A stretch of DNA of 38,561 nt from sequence record PZ344858.1, one strand, 5' to 3'. The position numbers were made by a program, and so were the translations under genes. Shown here one piece after another: positions 16,131 through 37,637 of the stretch. The DNA is from a phage. Below the pieces are notes generated by a model that searched no databases, had not been told where the DNA came from, and saw nothing but the letters and a program-made list of their open reading frames with translations. Numbering within the stretch: position 1 is the first letter of the stretch; every line of letters begins with the position of its first letter.

Positions 16131-16135
16131 ACACC

Positions 16136-16348: not shown

Positions 16349-16366
16349 TTAAACAGGAGAACTACC

Positions 16367-16636
16367 ATGACACAAGTAGCTGAAACTATCCGTCTATCCG
16401 ATACCGCCGACCAGTGGAACCGTCGAGTTCACATTAACGTTCGTAACGGAAAGGCTACCATGGTTTACCGTTGGAAGGACTCTAAGTCCTCTAAGAATCA
16501 CACTCAGCGTATGACGTTGACGGACGAGCAAGCACTGCGTCTGGTCAATGCGCTTACCAAAGCTTCCGTGACTGCAATTCATGAGGCTGGTCGCGTTGAT
16601 GAAGCTATGGCTATCCTCGACAAGATTGATAGCTAA
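16367..16636 (+). CDS. 4.5: gp4.5-like protein
   Basis: 89 aa ORF with RBS caggaga; size and position as T7 gp4.5. Confidence 0.8.
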   Translation: MTQVAETIRLSDTADQWNRRVHINVRNGKATMVYRWKDSKSSKNHTQRMTLTDEQALRLVNALTKASVTAIHEAGRVDEAMAILDKIDS

Positions 16637-16640
16637 GAGT

Positions 16641-16680
16641 GGTATACTCAAGGTCGCCCAAGTGGTGGCCTTCATGAATA
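16641..16680 (+). promoter_or_regulatory. RNase III-type processing hairpin (R4.7-like)
   Basis: ggtatactcaaggtcgcccaagtggtggccttcatgaata. Confidence 0.5.
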
Positions 16681-16703
16681 CTATTCGACTCACTATAGGA
16701 GAT
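16681..16703 (+). promoter_or_regulatory. T7-type promoter (phi4.7)
   Basis: ctattcgactcactataggagat; core -12 to +2 conserved, upstream AT-rich region variant. Confidence 0.75.
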
Positions 16704-21226: not shown

Positions 21227-21327
21227 CATATATTGGTATTGGCCTTTGTGTTATCGGAATGGGCCTCATTGCGTGGGGCCTTTGGGACTTAGCCCAAATA
21301 ATCAAGAAGATACACGACTATAAGTGA
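21214..21327 (+). CDS. 6.3: gp6.3-like small hydrophobic protein
   Basis: 37 aa from GTG with RBS aaggag 8 nt upstream: VETVAYIGIGLCVIGMGLIAWGLWDLAQIIKKIHDYK; size equals T7 gp6.3. Confidence 0.5.
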   Translation: METVAYIGIGLCVIGMGLIAWGLWDLAQIIKKIHDYK

Positions 21328-21365
21328 TAAACTCAAGGTCCAGGGGCCTTTATGATTATTACTTT
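21324..21365 (+). promoter_or_regulatory. RNase III-type processing hairpin (R6.5-like), without an associated T7 promoter
   Basis: gtgataaactcaaggtccaggggcctttatgattattacttt. Confidence 0.5.
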
Positions 21366-21394
21366 AAGATTTAACTCTAAGAGGAATCTTTATC

Positions 21395-21649
21395 ATGTTA
21401 ACACCTATTAACCAATTACTTAAGAACCCTAACGATATTCCAGATGTACCTCGTACAACTGCTGAGTATCTACAGGTTCGATTCAATTATGCGTATCTAG
21501 AAGCGTCTGGTCATATAGGACTTATGCGTGCTAATGGTTGTAGTGAAGCCCACATCTTGGGTTTCATTCAGGGCCTACAGTATGCCTCTAACGTCATTGA
21601 CGAGATTGAGTTACGCAAGGAACAACTAAGAGATGATGGGGAGGATTGA
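21395..21649 (+). CDS. 6.5: gp6.5-like protein
   Basis: 84 aa, RBS aagagga. Confidence 0.8.
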
Positions 21650-21653
21650 CCTT

Positions 21654-21920
21654 ATGTGTTTCTCACCGAAAGTTAAAGTTCCGAAGATGGATACCAATCA
21701 GGTTCGAGCCGTTGAGCCAGCACCCCTGACCCAAGAAGTCTCAGGTGTGGAGTTCGGTGGGTCTTCTGATGAGACGGATACCGAGGGCACCGAAGTGTCT
21801 GGACGCAAAGACCTCAAGGTCGAACGCGACGATTCCGTAGCGAAGTCTAAAGCCGCTGGTTCTGGCTCTGCTCGTATGAAATCTTCAATCCGTAAGTCTG
21901 CATTCGGAGGTAAGAAGTAA
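21654..21920 (+). CDS. 6.7: gp6.7-like virion protein
   Basis: 88 aa starting MCFSPKVKVPK with RBS ggggagga; ORF-track start at 21633 is an extension. Confidence 0.8.
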   Translation: MCFSPKVKVPKMDTNQVRAVEPAPLTQEVSGVEFGGSSDETDTEGTEVSGRKDLKVERDDSVAKSKAAGSGSARMKSSIRKSAFGGKK

Positions 21921-22321
21921 TGTCTGAGTTCACATGTGTGGAGGCGAAAAGTCGCTTCCGTGCAATCCAATGGACTGTAGAGCACCTTGGGTTGCCTAAA
22001 GGATTCGAAGGACACTTTATTGGCTACAGCCTCTACGTTGACGAAGTTATGGACACGTCTGGTTGCCACGAAGAGTACATTCTGGACTCTACTGGAAAAC
22101 ATGTAGCGTACTTCGCGTGGTGCGTAAGCTGTGACATTCACCATAAAGGTGACATTCTGGATGTAACGTCCGTTGTCATTAACCCTGAGGCAGACTCTAA
22201 AGGCTTACAGCGATTCCTTGCGAAACGCTTTAAGTGCCTTGCAGAACTCCATGATTGCGATTGGGTGTCCCGCTGCAAACACGAAGGCGAGACAATGCGT
22301 ATATACTTTAAGGAGGTATAA
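21920..22321 (+). CDS. 7: gp7-like host-specificity protein
   Basis: 133 aa, same length as T7 gp7. Confidence 0.85.
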   Translation: MSEFTCVEAKSRFRAIQWTVEHLGLPKGFEGHFIGYSLYVDEVMDTSGCHEEYILDSTGKHVAYFAWCVSCDIHHKGDILDVTSVVINPEADSKGLQRFLAKRFKCLAELHDCDWVSRCKHEGETMRIYFKEV

Positions 22322-22324
22322 GTT

Positions 22325-22630
22325 ATGGGTAAGAAAATTAAGAAGGCCGTGAAGAAAGTCACTAAGTCCGTTAAGAAAGTCGTTAAGGAAGTGGCTCGTC
22401 CGGTTAAACAGGTTGCCAGCGGTCTGGCTGGTGGTGCTGGTGAGGCACAGGTAGTGGAAGTGCCACAAGCTGCCGCTGCTACTCCTGCTGCACAGATTGT
22501 TGACGTACCTGAGAAAGAGGTTTCCACTGAGGATGAAGCACAGACCGAAAGCGGACGTAAGAAAGCCCGTGCTGGCGGTAAGAAGTCATTAAGTGTGGCT
22601 CGTAGCTCCGGTGGCGGCATCAATATTTGA
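22325..22630 (+). CDS. 7.3: gp7.3-like tail/adsorption protein
   Basis: 101 aa, lysine/alanine-rich, RBS aaggaggt. Confidence 0.85.
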   Translation: MGKKIKKAVKKVTKSVKKVVKEVARPVKQVASGLAGGAGEAQVVEVPQAAAATPAAQIVDVPEKEVSTEDEAQTESGRKKARAGGKKSLSVARSSGGGINI

Positions 22631-22644
22631 TCAGGAGGTGACAC

Positions 22645-24261
22645 ATGGCTGAGAAGCGTACAGGTCTAGCCGAGGAAGGTGCTAAGTCGGTCTATGAACG
22701 ATTGAAGAACGACCGTGCCCCGTATGAGACTCGTGCTCAAAACTGCGCTCAGTACACCATTCCGTCCCTCTTCCCTAAGGACTCCGATAACGCATCTACA
22801 GACTACACAACTCCGTGGCAAGCTGTGGGTGCTCGCGGTCTCAATAACTTGGCCTCTAAGCTCATGCTGGCTCTCTTCCCTATGCAAACGTGGATGAAAC
22901 TGACCATCTCTGAGTTTGAGGCCAAACAGTTACTGGATGACCCCGATGGACTCGCTAAGGTTGATGAGGGCCTCTCAATGGTAGAGCGCATCATCATGAA
23001 CTACATTGAGTCTAACAGCTACCGAGTGACTCTCTTCGAGGCTCTCAAGCAGTTAGTCGTTGCTGGCAACGTCCTGCTGTACCTACCGGAACCAGAAGGG
23101 TCGAACTATAATCCCATGAAGCTGTACCGATTGTCTTCTTATGTGGTCCAACGAGACGCATTCGGCAACGTTCTGCAAATGGTGACTCGCGACCAGATAG
23201 CTTTCGGAGCACTCCCTGAGGATGTCCGTAAGGCTGTAGAAGGTCAAGGTGGTGAGAAGAAACCTGATGAGACCATTGATGTGTACACTCACGTCTATCT
23301 GGATGAAGAATCAGGGGAGTATCTCCGCTACGAAGAGGTTGAGGGTATGGAGGTCCAAGGCTCAGACGGGTCTTACCCTAAAGAGGCTTGTCCATACATC
23401 CCGATTCGAATGGTTCGACTCGACGGTGAATCCTACGGTCGTTCGTACATTGAGGAATACTTAGGTGACTTACGGTCCCTTGAGAATCTCCAAGAGGCTA
23501 TCGTCAAGATGTCCATGATTAGCTCTAAGGTTATCGGCTTAGTGAATCCTGCTGGTATCACCCAGCCACGCCGACTGACCAAAGCTCAGACTGGTGACTT
23601 CGTTACTGGTCGTCCAGAAGACATCTCATTCCTACAACTGGAGAAGCAAGCAGACTTTACTGTAGCTAAAGCCGTAAGTGACGCTATTGAGGCTCGCCTT
23701 TCGTTTGCCTTCATGTTGAACTCTGCGGTTCAGCGCACTGGTGAACGTGTGACCGCCGAAGAGATTCGGTACGTTGCGTCAGAACTTGAAGATACTTTAG
23801 GTGGTGTCTACTCTATCCTTTCTCAAGAATTACAATTGCCTCTGGTACGAGTGCTCTTGAAGCAACTACAAGCCACGCAACAGATTCCTGAGTTACCTAA
23901 GGAAGCCGTAGAGCCAACTATTAGTACAGGTCTGGAAGCAATCGGTCGTGGTCAAGACCTTGATAAGCTGGAACGCTGTGTCTCTGCATGGGCTGCTCTG
24001 GCCCCTATGCGCGATGACCCAGACATCAACCTTGCGATGATTAAGTTACGCATTGCTAACGCTATCGGTATTGACACTTCTGGCATCCTTCTTACCGAAG
24101 AGCAGAAGCAACAGAAGATGGCTCAACAGTCTGTTCAAATGGGTATGGATAATGGCGCTGCTGCGCTTGGTCAAGGTATGGCTGCACAGGCTACGGCTTC
24201 ACCTGAGGCTATGGCTGCTGCCGCTGATTCCGTTGGTTTACAGCCGGTCCAGATTGAGTGA
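22645..24261 (+). CDS. 8: Head-to-tail connector (portal) protein (T7 gp8 homolog)
   Basis: 538 aa, RBS aggaggt; follows 7.3 directly with no gene 7.7. Confidence 0.97.
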   Translation: MAEKRTGLAEEGAKSVYERLKNDRAPYETRAQNCAQYTIPSLFPKDSDNASTDYTTPWQAVGARGLNNLASKLMLALFPMQTWMKLTISEFEAKQLLDDPDGLAKVDEGLSMVERIIMNYIESNSYRVTLFEALKQLVVAGNVLLYLPEPEGSNYNPMKLYRLSSYVVQRDAFGNVLQMVTRDQIAFGALPEDVRKAVEGQGGEKKPDETIDVYTHVYLDEESGEYLRYEEVEGMEVQGSDGSYPKEACPYIPIRMVRLDGESYGRSYIEEYLGDLRSLENLQEAIVKMSMISSKVIGLVNPAGITQPRRLTKAQTGDFVTGRPEDISFLQLEKQADFTVAKAVSDAIEARLSFAFMLNSAVQRTGERVTAEEIRYVASELEDTLGGVYSILSQELQLPLVRVLLKQLQATQQIPELPKEAVEPTISTGLEAIGRGQDLDKLERCVSAWAALAPMRDDPDINLAMIKLRIANAIGIDTSGILLTEEQKQQKMAQQSVQMGMDNGAAALGQGMAAQATASPEAMAAAADSVGLQPVQIE

Positions 24262-24329
24262 GGTCTGGTCTCAAGGTTCGAGTCCTTGGGTGTCCCTTAG
24301 TTCTTTAAATTGGAATGGAGATAACAATA

Positions 24330-25253
24330 ATGGCTGAATCTAATGCTGATGTATATGCGTCCTTCGGCGTAAACTCCGCTGTGATGTCTGGTGGTTCCGT
24401 TGAGGAACACGAGCAGAATATGCTGGCTCTGGATGTTGCTGCCCGTGATGGCGATGATGCAATCGAGTTAGCGTCCGACGAAGATGAAACTGAACGTGAC
24501 CTGTATGACAACTCTGACCCGTTCGGTCAAGAGGACGATGAGGGCCGTATTCAGGTTCGCATTGGTGATGGTTCTGAGCCGACTGATGTGGACACTGGGG
24601 AAGAAGGTTTTGATGGCACAGAAGGTTCCGAAGAGTTTACCCCACTGGGTGAGACTCCAGAAGAACTGGTAGCTGCCTCTGAGCAACTTGGTGAGCACGA
24701 AGAGGGCTTCCAAGAGATGATTAACATTGCTGCCGAGCGTGGCATGAGTGCTGAGACCATTGAGGCAATCCAGCGTGAGTACGAGGAGAACGAAGAGCTA
24801 TCCGCTGCATCCTACGCTAAGCTGGCTGAAATTGGTTACACTAAGGCTTTCATCGACTCATACATCCGTGGTCAAGAAGCTCTGGTGGAGCAGTACGTAA
24901 ACAGTGTAGTTGAGTATGCTGGCGGTCGTGAGCGTTTTGATGCGCTGTACAATCACCTTGAGACTCACAACCCTGAGGCTGCACAATCGCTGGACAATGC
25001 GCTGACCAATCGCGACTTAGCGACCGTTAAGGCTATCATTAACTTGGCTGGCGAGTCTCGTGCTAAGGCGTTCGGTCGTAAGCCCACTCGTAGTGTAACC
25101 AGTCGAGCTATTCCGGCTAAACCTCAAGCGACTAAGCGTGAAGGCTTTGCTGACCGTAGCGAGATGATTAAGGCTATGAGTGACCCTCGGTATCGCACCG
25201 ATGCAAACTATCGTCGTCAAGTCGAACAGAAAGTGATCGACTCTAACTTCTGA
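24330..25253 (+). CDS. 9: Capsid assembly (scaffolding) protein (T7 gp9 homolog)
   Basis: 307 aa from MAESNADVYASFGV with RBS ggag 9 nt upstream; highly acidic; ORF-track start at 24315 has no RBS. Confidence 0.9.
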   Translation: MAESNADVYASFGVNSAVMSGGSVEEHEQNMLALDVAARDGDDAIELASDEDETERDLYDNSDPFGQEDDEGRIQVRIGDGSEPTDVDTGEEGFDGTEGSEEFTPLGETPEELVAASEQLGEHEEGFQEMINIAAERGMSAETIEAIQREYEENEELSAASYAKLAEIGYTKAFIDSYIRGQEALVEQYVNSVVEYAGGRERFDALYNHLETHNPEAAQSLDNALTNRDLATVKAIINLAGESRAKAFGRKPTRSVTSRAIPAKPQATKREGFADRSEMIKAMSDPRYRTDANYRRQVEQKVIDSNF

Positions 25254-25256
25254 TAG

Positions 25257-25526
25257 ACTCTCGCTGGCACCTCTCGCTCGGATGCTACCGGTCAGAAGCA
25301 CGCCTTCCCGGCTACTAAGAGCGGTACTGACAAGGTTGCTAAGGACAACGTTATCGGCCTGTTCATGCACCGCTCTGCGGTAGGTACTGTTAAGCTGCGT
25401 GACTTGGCTCTGGAACGTGCTCGCCGTGCTAACTTCCAAGCGGACCAGATTATCGCGAAGTACGCAATGGGCCACGGTGGTCTGCGTCCAGAAGCTGCTG
25501 GTGCTGTGGTTTTCACGGCAGCGTAA
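25257..25526 (+). pseudogene. 10: Remnant of the major capsid protein gene (3' end of T7 gene 10A homolog), without start codon, RBS or promoter
   Basis: In-frame translation ...TGQKHAFPATKSGTDKVAKDNVIGLFMHRSAVGTVKLRDLALERARRANFQADQIIAKYAMGHGGLRPEAAGAVVFTAA* matches the C-terminal part of T7 gp10A as recalled; preceded by TGA TAG. Confidence 0.8.
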
Positions 25527-25637
25527 TGCTGAAAGTGGCCTCAACGGTCGCTGCTAGTCCCGAAGAGGTGAGCATTACTACCGAAGAGAGTCTAACTCCA
25601 GCACAGAAAGCTGCACGCACACGCGCGCTCATACGAT

Positions 25638-26213
25638 ATGAACGTTGAGACTGCCGCTGAGTTATCCGCTGTGAACGACATTCTGGCATCTATCGGTGAA
25701 CCTCCGGTATCAACGCTGGAAGGTGACGCTAACGCAGATGTAGCGAACGCTCGGCGCATTCTCAATAAGATTAACCGACAGATTCAGTCTCGTGGCTGGA
25801 CGTTCAACATTGAGGAAGGCATAACGCTATTACCTGATGTTTACTCCAACCTGATTGTGTACAGCGATGACTATTTGTCACTAATGGCTACTTCCGGTCA
25901 ATCAGTCTATGTTAATCGAGGTGGCTATGTGTATGACCGAACGAGTCAATCTGACCGCTTTGAGTCTGGTATCACTGTTAACATTATCCGTCTACGAGAC
26001 TACGATGAGATGCCTGAGTGCTTCCGATACTGGATTGTCACTAAGGCTTCCCGTCAGTTCAACAACCGATTCTTTGGGGCACCAGAAGTAGAGGGTGTAC
26101 TACAAGAAGAGGAGGATGAGGCTCGACGTCTCTGTATGGAGTACGAAGTGGATTATGGCGGTTATAACATGCTGGATGGTGACGCGTTCACTTCTGGTCT
26201 ACTGACTCGCTAA
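25638..26213 (+). CDS. 11: Tail tubular protein A (T7 gp11 homolog), starting at an internal methionine relative to T7
   Basis: 191 aa [23 protein letters not shown]...; T7 gp11 begins MRSYDMNVE as recalled; no Shine-Dalgarno sequence upstream here. Confidence 0.85.
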
Positions 26214-26233
26214 TAAGCATTAAGGAGGCTCTA

Positions 26234-28621
26234 ATGGCACTCATTAGCCAATCAATTAAGAACTTGAAGGGTGGTATCAGTCAACAGCCTGACATCCTTC
26301 GTTATCCAGACCAAGGGTCACGCCAAGTTAACGGTTGGTCTTCGGAGACCGAGGGCCTCCAAAAGCGTCCACCAATGGTTTTCCTTAAGACACTTGGAGA
26401 CAACGGTGCTCTAGGTCAAGCTCCGTACATCCACCTGATTAACCGTGATGAGAACGAACAGTATTACGCTGTGTTCACTGGTACAGGAATCCGAGTGTTT
26501 GACCTTGCCGGTAACGAAAAACAGGTACGATACCCAACAGATGGTGCTTCGTACATCACCACTTCAAACCCAAGGAACGACTTGAGGATGGTAACTGTGG
26601 CTGACTATACGTTCATCGTTAACAGAAACGTAAGGGTAGCACGTAATGCCAACTCTGTCAACCTTCCTGGGTTTAACCCTAAGAAAGATGCGTTAATCAA
26701 CGTTCGTGGTGGTCAGTACGGTAGAACCCTCCAGATTCAGATTAATGGGGGCACTCAGGCCAGCTATCAGATTCCAGATGGTTCACAACCCGCACACGTA
26801 AACAATACGGACGCTCAGTGGTTAGCTGAGGAGCTGGCCAGACAACTAAGGGCAAACACTCCCGGATGGACATTCAACGTGGGTCAAGGCTTTATCCACA
26901 TCATAGCAGATGCTGCCGGTGAGATTAACTCTTTGGTTACTAAGGATGGTTATGCAGACCAGTTGATTAACCCTGTAACACACTACGCCCAGTCATTCTC
27001 CAAGCTGCCACCTAACGCACCTGATGGGTACATGGTGAAAATCGTAGGAGATGCCTCAAAGTCCGCTGACCAATATTACGTTCGCTATGACGCACAGCGT
27101 AAGGTCTGGGTTGAGACACTAGGTTGGAACGTCACGAACCAACTTCTGTACGAGACTATGCCGCACGCGCTGGTTCGCGCTTCTGATGGTAACTTTGAGT
27201 TCAGGTGGCTTGAGTGGGTTCCAAAGACATGCGGTGACGATGATACCAACCCGTGGCCTTCCTTCATGGACTCCACAATCAACGATGTGTTCTTCTTCCG
27301 TAACCGTTTAGGTTTCCTAAGTGGAGAGAATATCATCTTGAGTAGAACCGCTAAATACTTCAACTTCTACCCAGCGTCAATCGCGAACTTGAGTGATGAT
27401 GATCCTATTGATGTGGCTGTAAGTACCAACAGAATAGCAATCCTTAAGTATGCCGTGCCATTCTCTGAGGAGTTGCTCATCTGGTCCGATGAAGCGCAGT
27501 TCGTCCTGACTGCTTCCGGTACTCTCACGTCGAAGTCAGTTGAGTTGAACCTAACGACTCAGTTTGATGTGCAGGACCGAGCGAGGCCGTTCGGGATTGG
27601 TCGTAACGTTTACTTTGCGAGTCCGAGGTCCAGCTTTACGTCCATCCATCGGTATTACGCCGTTCAGGATGTAAGTTCCGTTAAGAACGCTGAGGACATT
27701 ACGGCTCACGTTCCGAACTATATACCTAATGGTGTGTACAGTATCTGCGGGTCGGGTACTGAGAACTTCTGTTCGGTACTATCCCATGGGGACCCTAGCA
27801 AAATCTTCATGTACAAATTCCTGTACCTTAACGAAGAGTTGAGGCAACAGTCGTGGTCTCACTGGGACTTTGGGGAAAACGTGCAGGTTTTGGCATGTCA
27901 GAGCATCAACTCAGATATGTTCATCATTCTACGTAACGAGTTTAACACGTTCCTTGCAAGAGTTTCCTTTACGAAGAACGCCATTGACTTACAGGGAGAA
28001 CCTTATCGGGCCTTTATGGACATGAAGATTCGCTACACGATTCCAAGCGGAACGTATAACGATGATACCTATGAGACGTCCATCCATATTCCAACTATTT
28101 ATGGTGCAAACTTCGGGAGGGGCAAAATCACTGTACTTGAACCTGATGGTAAGATCACAGTGTTTGAGCAACCTCAGGCTGGCTGGAGTAGTGACCCTTG
28201 GCTGAGACTCAATGGTAACTTAGAGGGACGCATGGTGTACATCGGGTTCAACATCAACTTCGTCTATGAGTTCTCTAAGTTCCTCATCAAACAAACTGCC
28301 GACGATGGGTCTACCTCCACGGAAGACATTGGTCGCTTGCAGTTACGCCGAGCGTGGGTGAACTATGAGAACTCTGGGACGTTCGACATTTATGTTGAGA
28401 ACCAATCGTCCAGCTGGAAGTACACAATGGCTGGTGCCCGACTAGGCTCTAGCACCCTGAGGGCCGGTAGACTGAACTTAGGGACCGGACAATACCGATT
28501 CCCTGTGGTGGGCAACGCCAAGTTCAATACCGTGTCCATCTTGTCCGATGAGACTACCCCGTTGAACATCATTGGTTGTGGCTGGGAAGGTAACTACTTA
28601 CGGAGAAGTTCCGGTATTTAA
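26234..28621 (+). CDS. 12: Tail tubular protein B (T7 gp12 homolog)
   Basis: 795 aa, RBS aaggagg. Confidence 0.95.
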   Translation: MALISQSIKNLKGGISQQPDILRYPDQGSRQVNGWSSETEGLQKRPPMVFLKTLGDNGALGQAPYIHLINRDENEQYYAVFTGTGIRVFDLAGNEKQVRYPTDGASYITTSNPRNDLRMVTVADYTFIVNRNVRVARNANSVNLPGFNPKKDALINVRGGQYGRTLQIQINGGTQASYQIPDGSQPAHVNNTDAQWLAEELARQLRANTPGWTFNVGQGFIHIIADAAGEINSLVTKDGYADQLINPVTHYAQSFSKLPPNAPDGYMVKIVGDASKSADQYYVRYDAQRKVWVETLGWNVTNQLLYETMPHALVRASDGNFEFRWLEWVPKTCGDDDTNPWPSFMDSTINDVFFFRNRLGFLSGENIILSRTAKYFNFYPASIANLSDDDPIDVAVSTNRIAILKYAVPFSEELLIWSDEAQFVLTASGTLTSKSVELNLTTQFDVQDRARPFGIGRNVYFASPRSSFTSIHRYYAVQDVSSVKNAEDITAHVPNYIPNGVYSICGSGTENFCSVLSHGDPSKIFMYKFLYLNEELRQQSWSHWDFGENVQVLACQSINSDMFIILRNEFNTFLARVSFTKNAIDLQGEPYRAFMDMKIRYTIPSGTYNDDTYETSIHIPTIYGANFGRGKITVLEPDGKITVFEQPQAGWSSDPWLRLNGNLEGRMVYIGFNINFVYEFSKFLIKQTADDGSTSTEDIGRLQLRRAWVNYENSGTFDIYVENQSSSWKYTMAGARLGSSTLRAGRLNLGTGQYRFPVVGNAKFNTVSILSDETTPLNIIGCGWEGNYLRRSSGI

Positions 28622-28671
28622 TACATAATGTTCTCCCTGTGGTGTCAATACGACTACGGGAGGGTTTTCTT

Positions 28672-29088
28672 ATGATGATTATAAGACCTACTAAAAGTAC
28701 AGACTTTGAGGTATTCACTCCGGCTCACCATGACATTCTTGAAGCTAAGGCTGCTGGTATTGAGCCAAGTTTCCCAGATGCTTCCGAGTGTGTCACGTTG
28801 AGCCTCTATGGGTTCCCTCTAGCCATTGGTGGTAACTGTGGGGACCAGTGCTGGTTCGTTACGAGCGACCAAGTGTGGAGACTTAGTGGAAAAGCTAAGC
28901 GAGAGTTCCGCAAGTTAATCATGGAGTATCGCGATAAGATGCTTGAGAAGTATGATACTCTTTGGAATTACGTGTGGGTAGGCAATGCGTCTCACATTCG
29001 TTTCCTCAAGACTATCGGTGCGGTATTCCATGAAGAGTACACACGCGATGGTCAATTTCAATTATTCACAATAACGAAAGGAGGATAA
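28672..29088 (+). CDS. 13: Internal virion protein A (T7 gp13 homolog)
   Basis: 138 aa starting MMIIRPTKSTDF with RBS gggaggg; ORF-track start at 28639 is an extension. Confidence 0.85.
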   Translation: MMIIRPTKSTDFEVFTPAHHDILEAKAAGIEPSFPDASECVTLSLYGFPLAIGGNCGDQCWFVTSDQVWRLSGKAKREFRKLIMEYRDKMLEKYDTLWNYVWVGNASHIRFLKTIGAVFHEEYTRDGQFQLFTITKGG

Positions 29089-29092
29089 CCAT

Positions 29093-29683
29093 ATGTGCTG
29101 GGCAGCTGCAATTCCAATCGCAATAGCTGGCGCTCAGGCTATCGGCAGTCAGAATGCTCAAGCGAAAGCGATAGCGTCTCAGACCGCCGCTGGTCGTCGT
29201 CAAGCCTTTGAACTTATGAAGCAGACGAACATCCAGAATGCTGACCTATCGTTGCAAGCTCGAAGTAAACTTGAGGAAGCGTCCTCTGAGTTGACCTCAC
29301 AGAACATGCAGAAGGTACAAGCTATGGGGTCTATCCGAGCGGCTATCGGAGAAAGTATGCTTGAAGGTTCCTCAATGGACCGCATTAAGCGAGTCACTGA
29401 GGGCCAGTTCATTCGGGAGGCCAACATGGTCACGGAGAACTACCGTAGAGACTACCAAGCAATCTTCGCACAGCAACTTGGTGGCACTCAAAGTGCTGCA
29501 AGTCAGATTGATGAAATCTACAAGGGCGAACAGAAACAGAAGAGTAAGCTACAGATGGTTCTTGACCCACTGGCTATCATGGGGTCATCTGCTGCTAGTG
29601 CTTATGCGTCTGGGGCGTTCGACTCTAAGCCAACCACTAAGGCACCTATTGTTGCCGCTAAAGGAACTAAGACGGGGAGGTAA
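29093..29683 (+). CDS. 14: Internal virion protein B (T7 gp14 homolog)
   Basis: 196 aa, RBS aaaggagg. Confidence 0.9.
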   Translation: MCWAAAIPIAIAGAQAIGSQNAQAKAIASQTAAGRRQAFELMKQTNIQNADLSLQARSKLEEASSELTSQNMQKVQAMGSIRAAIGESMLEGSSMDRIKRVTEGQFIREANMVTENYRRDYQAIFAQQLGGTQSAASQIDEIYKGEQKQKSKLQMVLDPLAIMGSSAASAYASGAFDSKPTTKAPIVAAKGTKTGR

Positions 29684-29689
29684 TATTAT

Positions 29690-31933
29690 ATGAGCAAGAT
29701 TGAATCTGCCCTTCAAGCAGCACAACCGGGACTCTCTCGGTTACGTAGTGGCGCTGGTGGTATGGGCTACAGGGCCGCCTCAACGCAAGCTGAGCAGCCT
29801 AAGTCCAGCCTATTGGACACCATTGGTCGGTTCGCTCAGGCTGGAGCCGATATGTATACCGCTAAGGAACAACGTGCTCGTGACCTAGCCGATGAACGCT
29901 CTAACGAGATTATTCGTAAGCTGACCCCTGAGCAACGTCGAGAGGCTCTCAACAACGGGACCCTTCTGTATCAGGATGACCCATACGCTATGGAAGCACT
30001 ACGAGTCAAGACTGGTCGTAACGCTGCGTACCTAGTTGATGATGACGTTATGCAGAAGGTTAAAGAGGGTGTCTTCCGTACTCGTGAAGAGATGGAACAG
30101 TATCGCCATAGCCGTCTTCAAGAGGGTGCTAAAGCATACGCTGAGCAGTTCGGTATTGACCCTGAGGACGTGGATTATCAGCGTGGTTTCAACGGGGACA
30201 TCACTGAGCGTAACATCTCACTATATGGAGCACATGATAACTTCTTGAGTCAACAAGCTCAGAAGGGTGCCATCATGAATAGCCGAGTGGAACTTAACGG
30301 TGTCCTTCAAGACCCTGATATGCTTCGCCTCCCAGACTCTGCTGACTTCTTTGAGAAGTACATCGACAATGGTCTGGTTACTGGGGCAATCCCATCTGAT
30401 GCTCAAGCCACACAGCTTATAAGCCAAGCGTTCAGTGACGCTTCTAGCCGTGCTGGTGGTGCTGACTTCCTGATGCGAGTCGGTGACAAGAAGGTAACAC
30501 TTAACGGAGCCACGACGACTTACCGAGAGTTGATGGGTGAAGAACAATGGAATGCTCTTATGGTAACAGCACAACGTTCTCAATTTGAGAATGACGCTAA
30601 GCTGAACGAGCAGTATCGCTTGAAGATTAACTCTGCGCTGAACCAAGAGGACCCTCGTACTGCGTGGGAGATGCTTCAAGGTATCAAGGCTGAACTCGAT
30701 AAGGTTCAACCTGATGAGCAGATGACACCGCAACGTGAGTGGCTAATCTCGGCACAGGAACAAGTCCAGAATCAGATGAACGCATGGACGAAGGCTCAAG
30801 CCAAAGCTCTGGATGACTCAATGAAGTCTATGAACAAACTTAACGTAATCGACAAGCAATTCCAGAAGCGAATCAATGGTGAGTGGGTCTCAACGGACTT
30901 TAAGGATATGCCAGTCAACGAGAACACTGGTGAGTTCAAGCATAGTGATATGGTTAACTACGCCAATAAGAAGCTCGCTGAGATTGACCGCATGGACATC
31001 CCAGATAGCGCCAAGGACATGCTGAAGTTGAAATACCTTCAAGCGGACTCTAAGGACGGGGCATTCCGCACAGCAATCGGAACTATGGTGACTGACGCTG
31101 CTCAAGAGTGGTCTGCCGCTGTTATTAACGGTAAGTTACCAGAACGAACCCCAGCTCTGGATGCTCTACGTAGAATACGTAATGCCGACCCTCAGTTGAT
31201 TGCTGCGCTATACCCAGACCAAGCTGAGTTATTTCTGACGATGGACATGATGGACAAGCAAGGTCTTGACCCTCAGCTTATTCTTGATGCCGACAGACTG
31301 GCTGTTAAGCGGTCCAAAGAGCAACGCTTTGAGGATGATAAAGCATTCGAGTCTGCACTGAACGCATCTAAGGCTCCTGAGATTGCCCGTATGCCAGCGT
31401 CACTGCGCGAATCTGCACGTAAGATTTATGACTCCGTTAAGTATCGCTCAGGGAACGAAAGTATGGCTATGGAGCAGATGACCAAGTTCCTTAAGGAATC
31501 TACCTACACGTTCACTGGTGATGATGTTGATGGTGATACCATTGGTGTGATTCCGAAGAACATGATGCAAGTCAACTCTGACCCGAAATCATGGGAGCAA
31601 GGTCGGGATATTCTGGAGGAAGCACGTAAGGGAATCATAGCGAACAACAAGTGGATTACCAATAAGCAACTGACTATGTATTCTCAAGGTGATTCCATTT
31701 ACCTTATGGATACCACTGGTCAAGTGCGAATCCGGTATGACAAAGAGCTGCTCGCTAAGGTCTGGAGTGAGAACCAGAAGAAACTTGAAGAGAAAGCACG
31801 CGAGGAGGCATTGAAGGATGCCAACAAGCGAGCACCTATCACTGCTGCTACTAAGGCCCGTGAAGCTGGAGCTAAGCGAGTACGGGATAAACGTAAACAG
31901 GTTCCTAAGTTCATCTATGGACGTAAGGAGTAA
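29690..31933 (+). CDS. 15: Internal virion (core) protein C (T7 gp15 homolog)
   Basis: 747 aa, same length as T7 gp15. Confidence 0.95.
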   Translation: MSKIESALQAAQPGLSRLRSGAGGMGYRAASTQAEQPKSSLLDTIGRFAQAGADMYTAKEQRARDLADERSNEIIRKLTPEQRREALNNGTLLYQDDPYAMEALRVKTGRNAAYLVDDDVMQKVKEGVFRTREEMEQYRHSRLQEGAKAYAEQFGIDPEDVDYQRGFNGDITERNISLYGAHDNFLSQQAQKGAIMNSRVELNGVLQDPDMLRLPDSADFFEKYIDNGLVTGAIPSDAQATQLISQAFSDASSRAGGADFLMRVGDKKVTLNGATTTYRELMGEEQWNALMVTAQRSQFENDAKLNEQYRLKINSALNQEDPRTAWEMLQGIKAELDKVQPDEQMTPQREWLISAQEQVQNQMNAWTKAQAKALDDSMKSMNKLNVIDKQFQKRINGEWVSTDFKDMPVNENTGEFKHSDMVNYANKKLAEIDRMDIPDSAKDMLKLKYLQADSKDGAFRTAIGTMVTDAAQEWSAAVINGKLPERTPALDALRRIRNADPQLIAALYPDQAELFLTMDMMDKQGLDPQLILDADRLAVKRSKEQRFEDDKAFESALNASKAPEIARMPASLRESARKIYDSVKYRSGNESMAMEQMTKFLKESTYTFTGDDVDGDTIGVIPKNMMQVNSDPKSWEQGRDILEEARKGIIANNKWITNKQLTMYSQGDSIYLMDTTGQVRIRYDKELLAKVWSENQKKLEEKAREEALKDANKRAPITAATKAREAGAKRVRDKRKQVPKFIYGRKE

Positions 31934-31958
31934 TTAAGGCTACATAAGGAGGCCCTAA

Positions 31959-34900
31959 ATGGATAAGTACGATAAGAACGTACCAAGTGAGTATGACGGT
32001 CTGTTCCAAAAGGCGGCTGATGCCAACGGGGTCTCTTATGACCTTTTACGTAAAGTCGCTTGGACAGAATCACGGTTTCAACCCACAGCCAAGTCTAAAA
32101 CTGGACCACTGGGCATGATGCAGTTCACCAAGGCCACGGCTAAGGCTATGGGATTGCGAGTAACAGATGGTCCTTATGACGACCGACTTAACCCTGAATT
32201 GGCTATCAACGCTGCCGCTAAGCACCTTGCAGGTCTGGTAGGTAAATTTGATGGTGATGAACTCAAAGCTGCCCTTGCGTATAACCAAGGCGAGGGACGC
32301 TTGGGGAATCCACAACTTGAAGCGTACTCTAAGGGAGACTTCTCATCCATCTCCGAGGAAGGTCGTAATTATCTGCGCAATCTTCTGGATGTAGCTAAGT
32401 CTCCTATGTCTGGACAACTGGAAGCATTTGGTGGCATCACCCCAAAGGGTAAAGGAATTCCGGCTGATGTTGGACTGGCTGGGATTGGTCATAAGCAGAA
32501 AGTGACACAGGAACTTCCTGAGTCCACAAGTTTTGACGTTAAGGGTATCGAACAGGAGGCTACGGCGAAACCATTCGCCAAGGACTTTTGGGAGACCCAC
32601 GGAGAAACACTTGACGAGTACAACAGTCGTTCAACCTTCTTCGGATTCAAAAATACTGCCGAAGCTGAACTCTCCAACTCAGTCGCTGGGATGGCTTTCC
32701 GTGCTGGTCGTCTTGATAATGGTTTTGACGTGTTTAAAGACACCATTACGCCGACTCGCTGGAACTCTCACATCTGGACTCCAGAGGAGTTAGAGAAGAT
32801 TCGCACAGAGGTTAAGAACCCTGCGTACATCAACGTGGTGACTGGTGGTTCTCCTGAGAATCTTGACGAACTCATCAAGTTAGCTAATGAGAACTTTGAG
32901 GTGGATTTACGGAAATCAGAGGCCGGACTAGGAGCACAGCTTAGTGCTGGTATTATCGGTGCTGGTGTGGACCCACTCAGTTATGTTCCTATGGTTGGTG
33001 TGACTGGTAAGGGCTTTAAATTAATCAATAAGGCGCTTGTTGTTGGCGCTGAGAGTGCAGCACTTAACGTAGCCTCCGAGGGACTTCGAACCTCTGTGGC
33101 TGGTGGTGACTCGGACTATGCAGGCGCTGCCTTAGGTGGTTTTGTGTTTGGTGCTGGTATGTCCGCAATCAGTGATGCTATCGCTGCTGGACTAAAACGG
33201 GGTAAGCCGGAAGCTGAGTTCGACAATGAGTTCATTGGTCCTATGATGCGAATGGAAGCCAGAGAGACAGCGCGTAACGCCAACTCTGCGGACCTCTCTA
33301 GGATTAACACTGAGAACATGAAGTTTGAAGGTGAATACAAAGGCGTTCCTTATGAGGAACTTCCGACCGAAAAGGGTGCTGTGGTTCTCCATGATGGCTC
33401 CATACTTAGTGCGAGCAACCCAATCAACCCCAAGACTCTCAAAGAGTTCTCCGAGGTTGACCCTGAGAAAGCGGCACGAGGTATCAAACTAGCAGGGTTC
33501 ACTGAGATTGGGTTAAAGACCTTAGGCTCAGACGACGCTGATATTCGACGTGTAGCTATTGACCTAGTGCGGTCTCCTACAGGAATGCAATCAGGTTCCT
33601 CAGGGAAGTATGGTTCAACAGCCTCTGACATTTTCGAGAAACTTCGTGGCACTGACCAGCGTACTTACAACGACTTGTATAAGGCAATGTCTGACGCGAT
33701 GAAAGACCCTGAGTTCTCCACTGGCGGCGCTAAGATGTCTCGCGAAGAAGCTCGTTACACTATCGAGCGTCGAGTGGCCTTGGCTATTGAGAACCCTGAG
33801 CTACAGAAGGCTTTAACTCCTAACGAGCGAATCGTAATGGACATCGTTAAGCGACATTATGACACCAAGCGTGAACTTATGGAGAACCCTGCGGTCTTTG
33901 GTAATACGAAGGCTGTGAGTATCTTTCCAGAGAGTAGACACAAGGGAACGTATGTTCCACATGTGTACGACAAGTACGCTAAGGCACTAAAAATTCAACG
34001 CTATGGTGCTGAGGGCTTACAGGAAGGTATCGCTCGGTCATGGATGTGTAGCTACGATTTGAGACCTTCGGTAAAGGCCCGTATTGACGAAGCACTTAAA
34101 GAGATGCACGGTGTAGAGGAAGTCACTCATGATATGGTGTATAAGTACGCTATGGATAAAGCATACGGTATCTCTCACTCAGACAGGTTCACTAATAGCT
34201 CCATCATTGAGGAGAACATTGAGGGTCTTGTTGGTATAGAGAATAATTCATTCCTTGAAGCACGAAACCTCTTTGACTCCGACTTAGCAATCACCATGCC
34301 AGACGGTGAGCAATTCTCTGTGAACGATTTGAGGGACTTTAGTATGTTCCGTATCATGCCAGCGTATGACCGCCGTATCAACGGTGACATCGCAATAATG
34401 GGGTCTACCGGTAAAACCACTAAGGAACTTAAGGATGAGATTTTGGCTCTCAAAGCGAAAGCTGAGGGAGACGGTAAGAAGACAGGTGAGGTCCATGCTC
34501 TCATGGATACCGTTAAGATTCTTACTGGTCGTGCTCGACGCAATCAGGACACTGTGTGGGAAACCTCACTGCGTTCCATCAATGACCTAGGGTTCTTCGC
34601 CAAGAACGCCTATATGGGCGCTCAGAACCTTACGGAGATTGCTGGGATGATTGCCACGGGTAACGTGCGTGCCCTTGGTCACGGTATACCAATTCTACGT
34701 GATACCCTCTACAGGTCTAAACCAGTTTCCGCTAAGGAACTTAAGGAACTCCATGCCTCTCTATTCGGGAAGGAGGTGGACCAGTTGATTAGACCTCAGC
34801 GTGCTGACATAGTGCAGCGTCTAAGGGAAGCAACTGATACAGGACCTGTGGTTGCTAACATTGTAGGGACCTTGAAGTATTCCACACAGGAACTGGCTGC

Positions 34901-35933
34901 TCGCTCTCCGTGGACTAAGCTGCTTAATGGAACCACTAACTACCTTCTGGATGCTGCGCGTCAAGGTATGCTTGGGGACGTGATTAGTGCCACCCTAACA
35001 GGTAAGACTACCCGCTGGGAGAAAGAAGGATTCCTTCGGGGTGCCTCAATAACCCCTGAGCAGATGCAGGGAATCAAGGCACTCATTAAGGAACACATGG
35101 TGCGTGGTGAAGATGGTAAGTATACCGTTAAGGATAAGCACGCGTTCTCTATGGACCCAAGAGCTATGGACTTGTGGCGACTGGCTGATAAGGTAGCTGA
35201 CGAGGCAATGCTGCGTCCGCATAAGGTGTCCTTACAGGATTCACATGCGTTCGGAGCATTAGGCAAGATGGTGATGCAGTTTAAGTCTTTCACCATTAAA
35301 TCCCTTAACTCTAAGTTTCTGCGAACCTTCTACGATGGGTACAAGAACAACCGAGCGATTGACGCTGCGCTGACTGGTATCATCTCTATGGGTCTCGCTG
35401 GTGGTTACTACGCTATGGCTGCACACGTCAAAGCGTATGGAATGCCTAAGGAGAAACGTAAAGAATACTTGGAGCGTGCATTGGACCCAACCATGATTGC
35501 CCACGCGTCGTTATCTCGTAGTTCTCAATTAGGTGCTCCTTTGGCTATGGCTGACCTAGTTGGTGGCCTGTTCGGGGTTGAGTCCTCAAAGATGGCTCGC
35601 TCTACTATTCTTCCTAAAGACACCATGAGGGAGCGTGACCCTAATAAGCCTTATACCTCGTGGGAGGTAATGGGTAATATGGGTTCCAACATTCTTGAAC
35701 AGATGCCTTCGGCTGGATTTGTGGCTAACGTTGGGGCTTCCCTACTTAATACTGCTGGCGTGGTGAATGCTCCTAACAAAGCCACTGAGCAGGACTTCAT
35801 GACTGGTCTCATGAACTCCACAAAAGAGTTAGTACCGAACGACCCATTGACGCAACAGCTTGTGTTGAAGATTTATGAGGCGAATGGTGTTAACTTGAGG
35901 GAGCGTCGGAACGAAAGAATCTTCTCCCTGTAG
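31959..35933 (+). CDS. 16: Internal virion (core) protein D with N-terminal lytic transglycosylase domain (T7 gp16 homolog)
   Basis: 1324 aa; N-terminal SLT-like motif ESRFQPTAKSKTGPLGMMQF; RBS aaggagg. Confidence 0.95.
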   Translation: MDKYDKNVPSEYDGLFQKAADANGVSYDLLRKVAWTESRFQPTAKSKTGPLGMMQFTKATAKAMGLRVTDGPYDDRLNPELAINAAAKHLAGLVGKFDGDELKAALAYNQGEGRLGNPQLEAYSKGDFSSISEEGRNYLRNLLDVAKSPMSGQLEAFGGITPKGKGIPADVGLAGIGHKQKVTQELPESTSFDVKGIEQEATAKPFAKDFWETHGETLDEYNSRSTFFGFKNTAEAELSNSVAGMAFRAGRLDNGFDVFKDTITPTRWNSHIWTPEELEKIRTEVKNPAYINVVTGGSPENLDELIKLANENFEVDLRKSEAGLGAQLSAGIIGAGVDPLSYVPMVGVTGKGFKLINKALVVGAESAALNVASEGLRTSVAGGDSDYAGAALGGFVFGAGMSAISDAIAAGLKRGKPEAEFDNEFIGPMMRMEARETARNANSADLSRINTENMKFEGEYKGVPYEELPTEKGAVVLHDGSILSASNPINPKTLKEFSEVDPEKAARGIKLAGFTEIGLKTLGSDDADIRRVAIDLVRSPTGMQSGSSGKYGSTASDIFEKLRGTDQRTYNDLYKAMSDAMKDPEFSTGGAKMSREEARYTIERRVALAIENPELQKALTPNERIVMDIVKRHYDTKRELMENPAVFGNTKAVSIFPESRHKGTYVPHVYDKYAKALKIQRYGAEGLQEGIARSWMCSYDLRPSVKARIDEALKEMHGVEEVTHDMVYKYAMDKAYGISHSDRFTNSSIIEENIEGLVGIENNSFLEARNLFDSDLAITMPDGEQFSVNDLRDFSMFRIMPAYDRRINGDIAIMGSTGKTTKELKDEILALKAKAEGDGKKTGEVHALMDTVKILTGRARRNQDTVWETSLRSINDLGFFAKNAYMGAQNLTEIAGMIATGNVRALGHGIPILRDTLYRSKPVSAKELKELHASLFGKEVDQLIRPQRADIVQRLREATDTGPVVANIVGTLKYSTQELAARSPWTKLLNGTTNYLLDAARQGMLGDVISATLTGKTTRWEKEGFLRGASITPEQMQGIKALIKEHMVRGEDGKYTVKDKHAFSMDPRAMDLWRLADKVADEAMLRPHKVSLQDSHAFGALGKMVMQFKSFTIKSLNSKFLRTFYDGYKNNRAIDAALTGIISMGLAGGYYAMAAHVKAYGMPKEKRKEYLERALDPTMIAHASLSRSSQLGAPLAMADLVGGLFGVESSKMARSTILPKDTMRERDPNKPYTSWEVMGNMGSNILEQMPSAGFVANVGASLLNTAGVVNAPNKATEQDFMTGLMNSTKELVPNDPLTQQLVLKIYEANGVNLRERRNERIFSL

Positions 35934-35960
35934 TCTCTTAGATTTACTTAAGGAGGTCAA

Positions 35961-37637
35961 ATGGCTAACGTAATTAAAACCGTTTTGACTTACCCGTTAG
36001 ATGGCTCCAATCGTGATTTTAATATTCCGTTTGAGTATCTGGCCCGTAAGTTCGTAGTGGTAACTCTTATTGGTGTTGACCGCAAGGTCCTTACGCTCAA
36101 TACAGATTATCGCTTTGCTACGCGCACTACTATCTCGCTGACCAAATCTTGGGGTCCTGCTGATGGCTACACGACCATCGAGTTGCGCCGAGTAACCTCC
36201 ACGACCGACCGATTGGTTGACTTTACGGACGGCTCAATCCTGCGTGCGTATGACCTTAACGTAGCGCAGATTCAGACTATGCATGTGGCAGAAGAGGCCC
36301 GTGACTTAACTGCGGATACCATTGGTGTCAACAATGATGGTCACTTGGATGCCCGTGGTCGTCGTATCGTGAACCTAGCGAACGCTGTGGATGACCGTGA
36401 TGCCGTTCCATTTGGTCAACTTAAGACCATGAACCAGAACTCATGGCAAGCGCGTAATGAAGCCTTACAGTTCCGTAATGAGGCTGAGACTTTCAGAAAC
36501 CAAGCGGAGGGCTTTAAGAACGAGTCCAGCACTAACGCTACGAATACCAATCAGTGGCGTAATGAGGCTAAGGGGTTCCGTGATGAGGCCGAACAGTTCA
36601 AGAACACTGCGGCACAACAGGCTACCGCTGCTAGTAACTCTGCGGCTGCTGCTCACCAATCCGAGGTGAACGCTGCGAACTCCGCTACTGCATCCGCTAA
36701 CTCTGCCCAGTCGGCAGAACAGCAAGCAGACCGTGCGGAGCGTGAAGCAGACAAGTTGGGTAACTGGAATGCACTTGCAGAGGCCATTGAGGAAGTAAGT
36801 CCTGACCATGTGGTCACGTGGGCGGCTACTGCTAAGTTTAACGGTGAACTTATTGCTAAACGTTCTTCAACCCTGAATGCAACTGCCGAAGCTGGCTCTA
36901 TGGGGCAGATGGTACATGAATATGACCCGACTGCCGGGCGGTACACCTCAAATACATTTTGGGCTATCAAACACCCACATCAAGATGGATGGCACGTTCC
37001 CTTTCAGGTTCAAAGTAAACCTAATGATTCTGCTACATGGGAGATGCACTTCGGGGACTTCATGCATTGCTACAATGGCTTGCAGGTCGAAGGGTTCAAC
37101 AAACCGCTAGGTGTTACTAATCAGGCTAATACTGCCGTTAAGACGGTGGCACATGGTCCGGGTGATTTAGCCCAAGGCTCATGGGTATGTAACACCAGAT
37201 GGAGTTTCTACGACGCAGGGTTAGAAATTGGATGGGTTCGTGGTGGCTCTTCGAATGGCAACGGCCTACTCAGGTGGAAACCGGAAGCATCTCAAGCGAC
37301 GTATCATGACATTTGGCTAAACCCAGGTGGCGAGGTACAATTCCCATCCACGATTAAGGCAGGTGCTGCAACATATGCCGTTGATGGAAACATTGCCGGA
37401 ACTGTATGGGGCGGTTCTGGTCATCTTTACGGGTGGCTTAGAGAAAACACAGTCAACCACATTGCGATGGGTGGAGTTAACTGGGCGCAACTGTGGAGGG
37501 CTGGCGGTGTTGATGATGGTGGCGGTAAGGTCATAACAGGTATTTTAAACACGAACGCCGATGACACGGTAGATGGCTGCCAGTGGCGTGTTATGCAATA
37601 TGTACGCAACGATGGTCAACGCTTCAATATTTACTAA
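35961..37637 (+). CDS. 17: Tail fibre protein (T7 gp17-like N-terminal half, divergent C-terminal receptor-binding half)
   Basis: 558 aa; residues 1 to about 265 near-identical to T7 gp17 as recalled; remainder unrelated to the T7 tip. Confidence 0.95.
   Translation: MANVIKTVLTYPLDGSNRDFNIPFEYLARKFVVVTLIGVDRKVLTLNTDYRFATRTTISLTKSWGPADGYTTIELRRVTSTTDRLVDFTDGSILRAYDLNVAQIQTMHVAEEARDLTADTIGVNNDGHLDARGRRIVNLANAVDDRDAVPFGQLKTMNQNSWQARNEALQFRNEAETFRNQAEGFKNESSTNATNTNQWRNEAKGFRDEAEQFKNTAAQQATAASNSAAAAHQSEVNAANSATASANSAQSAEQQADRAEREADKLGNWNALAEAIEEVSPDHVVTWAATAKFNGELIAKRSSTLNATAEAGSMGQMVHEYDPTAGRYTSNTFWAIKHPHQDGWHVPFQVQSKPNDSATWEMHFGDFMHCYNGLQVEGFNKPLGVTNQANTAVKTVAHGPGDLAQGSWVCNTRWSFYDAGLEIGWVRGGSSNGNGLLRWKPEASQATYHDIWLNPGGEVQFPSTIKAGAATYAVDGNIAGTVWGGSGHLYGWLRENTVNHIAMGGVNWAQLWRAGGVDDGGGKVITGILNTNADDTVDGCQWRVMQYVRNDGQRFNIY

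Follow-up and report, generated by a model that had tools for sequence, protein, structure and literature searches.

The window, by which we mean the whole stretch of 38,561 nucleotides analyzed here (PZ344858.1), is a complete, circularly permuted T7-like (Teseptimavirus) genome, and its gene order, as determined by blast, is colinear with that of T7 over the entire length. The assembly is of the short-read style, circular, with the terminal repeat collapsed, and it contains no Ns. The same gene order is found in T7, HZ2R8, vB_YenP_WW2, 64795_ec1, and PHB19, which are 89 to 94% identical to the window at the DNA level; with an identity of ~89% to T7, the backbone represents a wild-type lineage rather than laboratory T7. 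Gene 1 (6420 to 9071, + strand) encodes an RNA polymerase of 883 amino acids that is 98% identical to T7 RNA polymerase and has a specificity loop identical to that of T7, so its cognate promoter is the T7 consensus.

We then determined where promoters of this type are present. In a scan of the whole window the core CGACTCACTAWAG was found in eight copies, all on the + strand between 3421 and 16698, against a chance expectation of 0. A 23-nt weight matrix trained on the 17 T7 promoters plus the eight window sites (29 to 40 bits for the training sites) and applied to both strands down to a cutoff of 8 bits returned these eight sites and no more; with the same matrix, 17 sites were found in the relative HZ2R8. 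The eight comprise the promoter at the phiOL position (3416 to 3438; TAATTCGACTCACTAAAGGGAGA) and the class II promoters phi1.3 (9562 to 9584), phi1.5 (10879 to 10901), phi1.6 (10996 to 11018), phi2.5 (12183 to 12205; TAATACGACTCACTATAGGGAAG), phi4c (15438 to 15460), phi4.3 (16108 to 16130), and phi4.7 (16681 to 16703), all on the + strand, recovered by the core and matrix scans alike, and shared with T7 and close Teseptimavirus relatives. Exact, three-mismatch, and weight-matrix scans detected no class III promoter ahead of genes 6.5, 9, 10, 13, and 17 or at the right end. The initial annotation had likewise placed eight promoters within 3416 to 16703 and had left the late region and the right end empty, and the relaxed scan of both strands added nothing to that list. 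No 9- to 11-mer was common to three or more late intergenic regions, and the few shared by two of them were mostly ribosome-binding sequence. Diverged or alternative late promoters are thus ruled out by the matrix scan, the k-mer search, and the T7-identical specificity loop.

Pairwise alignment with nine normal relatives revealed nine clean gaps in the window. Those at phi6.5, phi9, phi13, phi17, and phiOR are 26 to 31 nt long and lie precisely on the promoters, as the initial annotation had suspected when it spoke of excisions of promoter size; the two junction strings that it quoted, at 2530 to 2545 and 28640 to 28660, are real. At these five sites TAATACGACTCACTATAGGGAGA is present in T7 without exception and in HZ2R8 at four, HZ2R8 not being colinear with the window at phiOR. 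All the junctions are given on the + strand. The phiOR junction (2534/2535) lacks 31 nt, GATAAATTAATACGACTCACTATAGGGAGAG in T7 and WW2; the phi6.5 junction (21341/21342), where AAGGTCC is joined to AGGGGCC, lacks 30 nt, CTAAATTAATACGACTCACTATAGGGAGAT; the phi9 junction (24247/24248) lacks 31 nt, GAATTTAATACGACTCACTATAGGGAGACCA as in HZ2R8; the phi13 junction (28644/28645) lacks ~31 nt, TCGAAATTAATACGACTCACTATAGGGAGAA; and the phi17 junction (35911/35912) lacks 26 nt, ATAATACGACTCACTATAGGGAGAGG. The R6.5 RNase III hairpin at 21340, earlier described as intact, is in fact shortened, 4 bp of its upper stem being gone. Two further junctions lie in the early region. At 9084/9085, where AAATTAATA is joined to TCACTATAGGGAAG, ~80 nt (T7 5836-5914) are absent, comprising the core of phi1.1A, the R1.1 RNase III site, and the upstream half of phi1.1B, and no functional promoter remains there. 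At a phi3.8-like site (14317/14318) the absent 32 nt, ACTCACTATAGGGAGACCACAACGGTTTCCCT, start inside the promoter and extend 15 nt into the transcribed leader; PHB19 shows the exact precut form of this site.

The greatest losses affect genes 10 and 11. At 25261/25262 (+ strand) ~860 nt (T7 22882-23736) are absent, including phi10, the s10 leader, the ribosome-binding site, and codons 1 to ~257 of the capsid gene 10, and what is left of the gene (25262 to 25526, + strand) is its last ~88 codons and the stop, devoid of a start codon, ribosome-binding site, and promoter. At 25624/25625 (+ strand) ~124 to 127 nt (T7 24106-24229, GCTGCTAACAAAG...GGAACTATAT) carrying the Tphi cassette are absent, together with the ribosome-binding site and the first two letters (AT) of the start codon of gene 11 (tail tubular protein A; 25625 to 26213, + strand), which has therefore lost its native start and has its first in-frame ATG at 25638. 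The complete gene 10 and complete gene 11 expected of a Teseptimavirus are both missing from the window. Since most of the capsid gene and the start codon of gene 11 are lost, no virion can be made from the genome as it is written here. The gaps at phi10/gene 10, at Tphi and the gene 11 start, and at 9084/9085 and 14317/14318 had gone without mention in the initial annotation. Altogether, the inferred gaps amount to 1,248 nt, and adding them to the window gives 39,809 nt, compared with 39,937 nt for T7.

The relatives carry what the window lacks. Promoter-bearing inserts were found at phi6.5, phi9, phi10, phi13, and phi17 in all nine aligned relatives and at phiOR in seven (HZ2R8 and CICC 80001 are not colinear there), while at the phi3.8-like site one of the nine is not colinear and the others carry the promoter. 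Aside from these noncolinear cases, phi1.1A/B, the phi3.8-like site, the class III promoters, phiOR, and Tphi are present in the relatives and not in the window, and all nine have gene 10 in full and gene 11 with its start. All 18 environmental contigs with the phi6.5 flanks of the window have a promoter-sized insert of 30 nt between them, and the phi6.5 junction of the window was found in only 3 of 279 phage records. A record of the window itself was recovered neither from viral contigs scanned for the Tphi junction, nor from viral, metagenome, and genome contigs scanned for a gapped phi6.5 pattern, nor by megablast of the phage, plasmid, and E. coli collections, nor by look-ups of exact proteins. 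The earlier statement that natural T7-group phages are not organized in this way thus holds for every relative and every environmental contig compared at phi6.5.

We then asked what the absent segments have in common. Eight of the nine gaps correspond to sequences that are also carried by T7 expression vectors, namely, the consensus promoter (at phiOR, phi6.5, phi9, phi13, phi17, and the phi3.8-like site), phi10 with gene 10, and Tphi. A pET-3xa-derived plasmid aligns to T7 22881-22969 and 24106-24229, and the Tphi gap of the window equals T7 24106-24229 at both ends, just as in the plasmid. The gene 10 gap starts at the first vector-matching base (T7 22882) and ends at T7 23736, the base at which the alignment of ESh3, under VecScreen-type conditions, to a model 260-codon pET-3x insert also stops; this insert was built from T7 and is presumed to represent that of pET-3x/pGEMEX vectors, whose real sequence it is not. 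That the cut ends are the ends of pET-borne T7 fragments points to removal in silico rather than to engineering or evolution.

The sensitivity of individual promoters to removal followed the same rule. When blastn was run under VecScreen settings and a small pET database served as the reference, seven normal genomes gave 8 to 11 matches scoring at least 23, exactly at the sites lost in the window, while the window itself, MZ833439, and PV596790 gave none; a score of 23 is the lowest internal-match score of VecScreen. In the relatives, the removed sites scored between 23 and 32 or were rated strong, and the retained promoters scored 20 or 21. The phi3.8-like site was at the upper end, exact identity to the phi10 region of pET extending over the missing 32 nt and no further (score of 32, strong), phiOR scored 27 to 28 against the pET promoter, and phi17, with a match of 23 nt, was the weakest of the removed sites. 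Of the promoters kept, phi1.5 and phi2.5 have subthreshold matches of 20 and 21 nt, respectively, and for that at phiOL no match scoring at least 20 was among those listed. A vector match of at least 23 nt thus went with loss of the promoter and one of at most 22 nt with its retention. The phi1.1 region stands apart, phi1.1A and phi1.1B being each matched by the pET promoter over only 22 nt; the pET promoter alone is insufficient for the ~80-nt gap spanning phi1.1A, R1.1, and phi1.1B, and other vector entries are needed. Nor does pET alone account for the 1 to 4 nt by which the gaps at the class III promoters exceed the exact match. PLSDB contained no plasmid with the T7 5836-5914 (R1.1) fragment, and a literature search on R1.1 showed only its reuse in synthetic constructs.

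Two other ways of screening were considered. Screening against the complete T7 genome is ruled out, as 219 exact runs of at least 30 nt common to the window and T7 survive, which means that only the vector-borne T7 segments were targeted. Masking of k-mers (k = 27 to 31, one mismatch) against pET alone, followed by hand, fits phi9 and does not fit phi6.5 or phi17.

The DNA itself could truly lack these segments, as would a T7-like genome that had been engineered, or one that is defective and dependent on a helper, with late genes expressed by read-through from class II promoters. Such deletions would be compatible with gaps that are clean and of promoter size in a genome that is otherwise colinear and intact, and with Tphi gone, read-through from upstream is physically possible. 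The initial annotation had stated that late expression would depend on read-through of this kind, but the same cuts that remove the promoters wreck gene 10 and the start of gene 11, abolishing 257 capsid codons and the gene 11 ribosome-binding site, and they end where pET fragments end. Moreover, the backbone is that of a wild-type lineage ~89% identical to T7 and not of laboratory T7, and the loss follows the 22/23-nt similarity rather than function, phi2.5 being kept and the phi3.8-like site cut. Together with the recurrence of the pattern in a deposited genome whose phage forms plaques and has a normal capsid (see below), this leaves a true deletion barely credible.

An error of assembly, in which identical promoter repeats of 23 to 30 nt collapsed or broke the graph and the contigs were joined without them, is highly unlikely, even though the class III promoters are perfect repeats and the assembly is a short-read-style, circular one with a collapsed terminal repeat. 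Unique sequence was lost too (860 nt at gene 10 and the Tphi cassette), with ends defined by the vector, and the class II promoters at 10996 and 16108 survived in spite of being identical. Furthermore, a break in the graph would duplicate or keep the k-1 bases of the repeat, not drop the repeat together with a few flanking bases, and the window is free of Ns.

Decontamination at the level of reads, where reads matching a vector or contaminant database were discarded or trimmed ahead of assembly or consensus calling and the positions left uncovered were dropped, would likewise strike vector-like segments, and it could explain the loss of the ~53- to 57-nt spacer between phi1.1A and phi1.1B, as every read covering the spacer holds one of the promoters. 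However, reads overlapping a vector match only in part predict gaps shorter than the match, while the gaps observed equal the match or, for the class III promoters, exceed the exact pET match by 1 to 4 nt, and de novo assembly would have placed Ns between any flanks that it joined. We consider this course of events unlikely; were it true, the consequence would be unchanged, and the gaps would still be an artifact.

The same pattern was found in three GenBank records, MZ833439 (AH67C600_Q5), PV596790 (vB_Yep_9), and PV596791 (vB_Yep_15), which are different phages ~89 to 90% identical to the window. The phi1.1 and phi6.5 junctions of MZ833439 and PV596790 are identical to those of the window, both records have the gaps at phi9, phi13, and phi17, a gene 10 stump, and no Tphi, and Q5 also has the gap at the phi3.8-like site; PV596791 shares the phi6.5 junction and the gene 10 stump. 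The Tphi cut of Q5 and Yep_9 ends 20 nt earlier than that of the window because their own sequence departs from pET there: both keep TTTAATGGGAGGAACTATAT after Tphi, where the pET tail reads TGAAAGGAGGAACTATAT. Q5 retains a 79-nt divergent island within gene 10, and a variant right-end promoter, TAATTCGACTCACTATAGGGA, is retained in both. As read from the sequences, the cut ends track each genome's own vector similarity. AH67C600_Q5 forms plaques and has a capsid of ~50 nm by electron microscopy, and yet in its record gene 10 is only a 64-amino-acid stump. The methods of the Q5 paper nowhere mention vector removal, and one paper took the trimmed gene 10 stump for a novel small capsid protein. 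A natural helper-dependent or satellite-like T7 derivative lacking every class III promoter, Tphi, and the bulk of gene 10, which would have to be represented by at least four isolates, has a practically negligible probability.

We conclude, with a probability of about 0.9, that the missing segments are an artifact of vector contamination trimming and not a new phage organization. An ordinary Teseptimavirus genome would have been edited in silico after assembly, the stretches resembling T7-derived vector parts being cut out and the flanks joined. Three vector parts would have been targeted: the consensus T7 promoter of 23 nt, the phi10-s10-gene 10 N-terminal block found in vectors of the pET-3x/pGEMEX type, and the terminator cassette with Tphi that pET vectors carry. 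A VecScreen/UniVec-type contamination screen followed by deletion of the flagged spans would remove the consensus class III promoters, with their vector match of at least 23 nt, and would spare the class II promoters, which are nonconsensus and match over at most 22 nt. The coincidence of cut ends with vector ends, the 22/23-nt threshold, and the recurrence in other records are observed; the trimming step itself, the tool used, and the party that applied it are inferred. In the physical phage, phi6.5, phi9, phi10, phi13, phi17, phiOR, and Tphi are almost certainly present, as are a complete gene 10 and an undamaged gene 11.

Biologically, this is nothing new, as standard T7 late promoters are to be expected in the real phage; its value is that of a curation warning on data quality. 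The T7 promoter, gene 10 leader, and Tphi used in vectors originate from T7-like phages, so contamination screens flag these phages, and if the flagged spans are deleted, the genome deposited is one without late promoters, the terminator, and most of the capsid gene. At least three such trimmed records are in GenBank, and they will mislead promoter surveys, studies of RNA polymerase specificity, pangenome and gene content analyses, and models trained on phage genomes. In the promoter-deleted and refactored T7 genomes made in studies of attenuation and refactoring, single class III promoters were removed from laboratory T7 and the essential genes were kept. In the window, by contrast, the backbone belongs to a wild relative, the cuts destroy essential genes, and the sites affected are those chosen by similarity to vectors.

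We searched the window for T7-type promoters and found that the core CGACTCACTAWAG occurs eight times, always on the + strand and between 3421 and 16698, where no copy is expected by chance. A weight matrix derived from the 17 T7 promoters and these eight sites (training sites, 29 to 40 bits), with which both strands were scanned down to 8 bits, returned the same eight sites only, and HZ2R8 yielded 17 under the same matrix. The initial annotation had described the late region as devoid of T7-type promoters, and both searches, including the relaxed scan that it proposed, confirm this. No alternative motif common to at least three late intergenic regions of the window was found. Since the RNA polymerase of the window (6420 to 9071) is 98% identical to that of T7 and shares its specificity loop and AT-rich recognition loop, the expected cognate promoter is the T7 consensus.

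By megablast, the window falls among T7-like phages, with ca. 93 to 94% identity to Escherichia phage HZ2R8 and Yersinia phage vB_YenP_WW2 and ca. 89% to T7. No collection searched yielded a source record for the window itself. The window is a complete, circularly permuted genome with a collapsed terminal repeat; its base 1 corresponds to ca. T7 36673, and T7 base 1 falls at 3077. Its ends, 1 and 38561, lie where the genome was opened between T7 ca. 36671 and 36673, in the gene 18 region; such an opening and a collapsed repeat are what circularising a short-read assembly typically yields.

Alignments with nine normal relatives (T7, HZ2R8, WW2, 64795_ec1, PHB19, 04922B, CICC 80001, ESh3, and C2) covered first every T7 promoter region and then the sequence flanking each junction. 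As the initial annotation had anticipated, clean gaps appeared at the lost promoters. There are nine in all: phiOR (2534/2535, 31 nt missing), a span from the core of phi1.1A through the R1.1 RNase III site into phi1.1B, whose upstream half is lost (9084/9085, ca. 80 nt), a phi3.8-like site (14317/14318, 32 nt), phi6.5 (21341/21342, 30 nt), phi9 (24247/24248, 31 nt), phi10 with its leader and gene 10 codons 1 to ca. 257 (25261/25262, ca. 860 nt), the terminator Tphi (25624/25625, 124 to 127 nt), phi13 (28644/28645, ca. 31 nt), and phi17 (35911/35912, 26 nt). Every relative colinear at a junction has a promoter- or terminator-bearing insert there, the noncolinear ones being HZ2R8 and CICC 80001 at phiOR and 64795_ec1 at the phi3.8-like site. 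A gapped pattern over the phi6.5 junction was matched by contigs from viral (13) and metagenome (5) collections; each contains the 30-nt insert, and the deleted form was not seen. With the nine inferred segments (1,248 nt) put back, the genome would measure 39,809 nt; T7 has 39,937 nt, or 39,777 nt without its 160-nt terminal repeat.

Between 25254 and 25637, most of the major capsid gene 10 (promoter, leader, and ca. 257 codons) and Tphi are gone, and the Tphi gap also removes the first two bases (AT) of the gene 11 start codon, ATG, together with the ribosome-binding site of that gene. The genome as written cannot assemble a virion. The losses of gene 10, Tphi, and the gene 11 start had escaped the initial annotation. 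Its "intact" R6.5 RNase III hairpin (21318 to 21372) does keep the lower stem, but the upper stem is cut from 10 to 6 bp (-13 kcal/mol, versus -20.7 for the T7 version).

The gaps coincide with T7 fragments borne by expression vectors. In PLSDB, a plasmid derived from pET-3xa aligns to T7 22881-22969 and 24106-24229, and the Tphi gap equals the latter at both ends (GCTGCTAACAAAG...GGAACTATAT). At the phi3.8-like site, the 32 missing nt correspond exactly to the longest stretch identical to the pET phi10 region, with the pre-cut form present in PHB19. The gene 10 gap starts at the first vector-matching base and ends at T7 23736, three codons short of codon 260; the gene 10 portion of pET-3x and pGEMEX vectors is 260 codons long. 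Because the window differs from T7 at 23737, immediately beyond this point, and at 23743, local alignment would terminate at 23736. Removal by similarity to whole T7 is ruled out: 219 exact runs of at least 30 nt shared with T7 survive, and therefore only vector-borne pieces were targeted.

We then simulated a vector screen using blastn with VecScreen settings and a small database comprising a real pET3xa stretch and a modelled 260-codon gene 10 insert. The lowest internal-match score that VecScreen reports is 23. Seven normal genomes gave 8 to 11 matches each at a score of at least 23, at phiOR, the phi3.8-like site, phi6.5, phi9, phi10-gene 10, Tphi, phi13, and phi17, exactly the sites missing from the window; the window itself gave none at that score against this pET database. 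Retained promoters score 20 to 21. The ESh3 alignment to the modelled insert stops at ...CCGCTGGTGG, the window's cut point, and CGCTGGCA follows the break in both.

The absence of the late promoters is not real biology but almost certainly a vector-screening artefact. The organisation that the initial annotation envisaged, late genes read through from class II promoters, is not borne out, and a truly promoter-less phage, engineered or defective, is very unlikely, given vector-defined gap ends, destroyed essential genes, a wild backbone, and a choice of sites that follows a similarity threshold. Repeat collapse during assembly does not explain the gaps, as unique sequence is also gone and identical class II promoters are still present. 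Read-level decontamination, which would equally be an artefact, should produce gaps that fall short of the vector match, and it would not join the flanks.

Two details sit less well with the proposed trimming of an ordinary genome. Class III gaps exceed the exact pET match by 1 to 4 nt, probably because other vector entries differ in their flanks or because trimming was done by hand. The unique ends of the ca. 80-nt gap (T7 5836-5914) are shared by three genomes, and the pET promoter match does not account for this gap, as phi1.1A and phi1.1B each match pET by only 22 nt (score in relatives, 20 to 22). One idea is a vector or construct in the screening database with the T7 R1.1 RNase III fragment; early pET transcription vectors carried it, and R1.1 is reused in synthetic devices. 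No plasmid with this fragment was found in PLSDB. The pET phi10 and Tphi segments occur in PLSDB on small plasmids filed as native to Ruficoccus, Staphylococcus haemolyticus, Aeromonas veronii, Micromonospora, and others (e.g., NZ_CP080650.1, NZ_CP071514.1, CP046410.1, and NZ_CP130428.1), likely laboratory-vector contamination of "complete" genomes. A 38,276-bp Yersinia pestis "plasmid", NZ_CP155630.1, matches T7 at ca. 73 to 77% identity in gene 10 and the tail genes and is apparently the genome of a T7-like phage.

Searches with the phi1.1 and phi6.5 junctions matched 222 and 279 records, respectively, three of which, all published T7-like genomes in GenBank, share the window's junctions: AH67C600_Q5 (MZ833439), vB_Yep_9 (PV596790), and vB_Yep_15 (PV596791). 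The phi1.1 junction, TTAATA/TCACTATAGGGAAG, is identical in the first two, which lack all class III promoters and Tphi, keep only a gene 10 stump, and contain no VecScreen-type match; vB_Yep_15 has the phi6.5 junction and the stump. Q5 forms plaques and has an icosahedral capsid of ca. 50 nm, its 64-aa stump was read as a novel small capsid protein, and its methods list Trimmomatic, SPAdes, SSPACE, and GapFiller, with vector removal unmentioned (PMC10194157). Since a viable T7-like phage needs its capsid gene, the three records are artefactual, and the window, bearing the same signature, is almost certainly artefactual too. The value of these observations lies mainly in the caution they urge when T7-like genomes are screened for vector sequence. 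The cut ends in Q5 and vB_Yep_9 track each genome's own vector similarity: Q5 has a 79-nt divergent island left inside gene 10, and both retain the variant right-end promoter TAATTCGACTCACTATAGGGA, a short vector match. Both also retain TTTAATGGGAGGAACTATAT after Tphi, where pET has TGAAAGGAGGAACTATAT, whereas the window lacks that tail, its ancestor having matched pET to the end.
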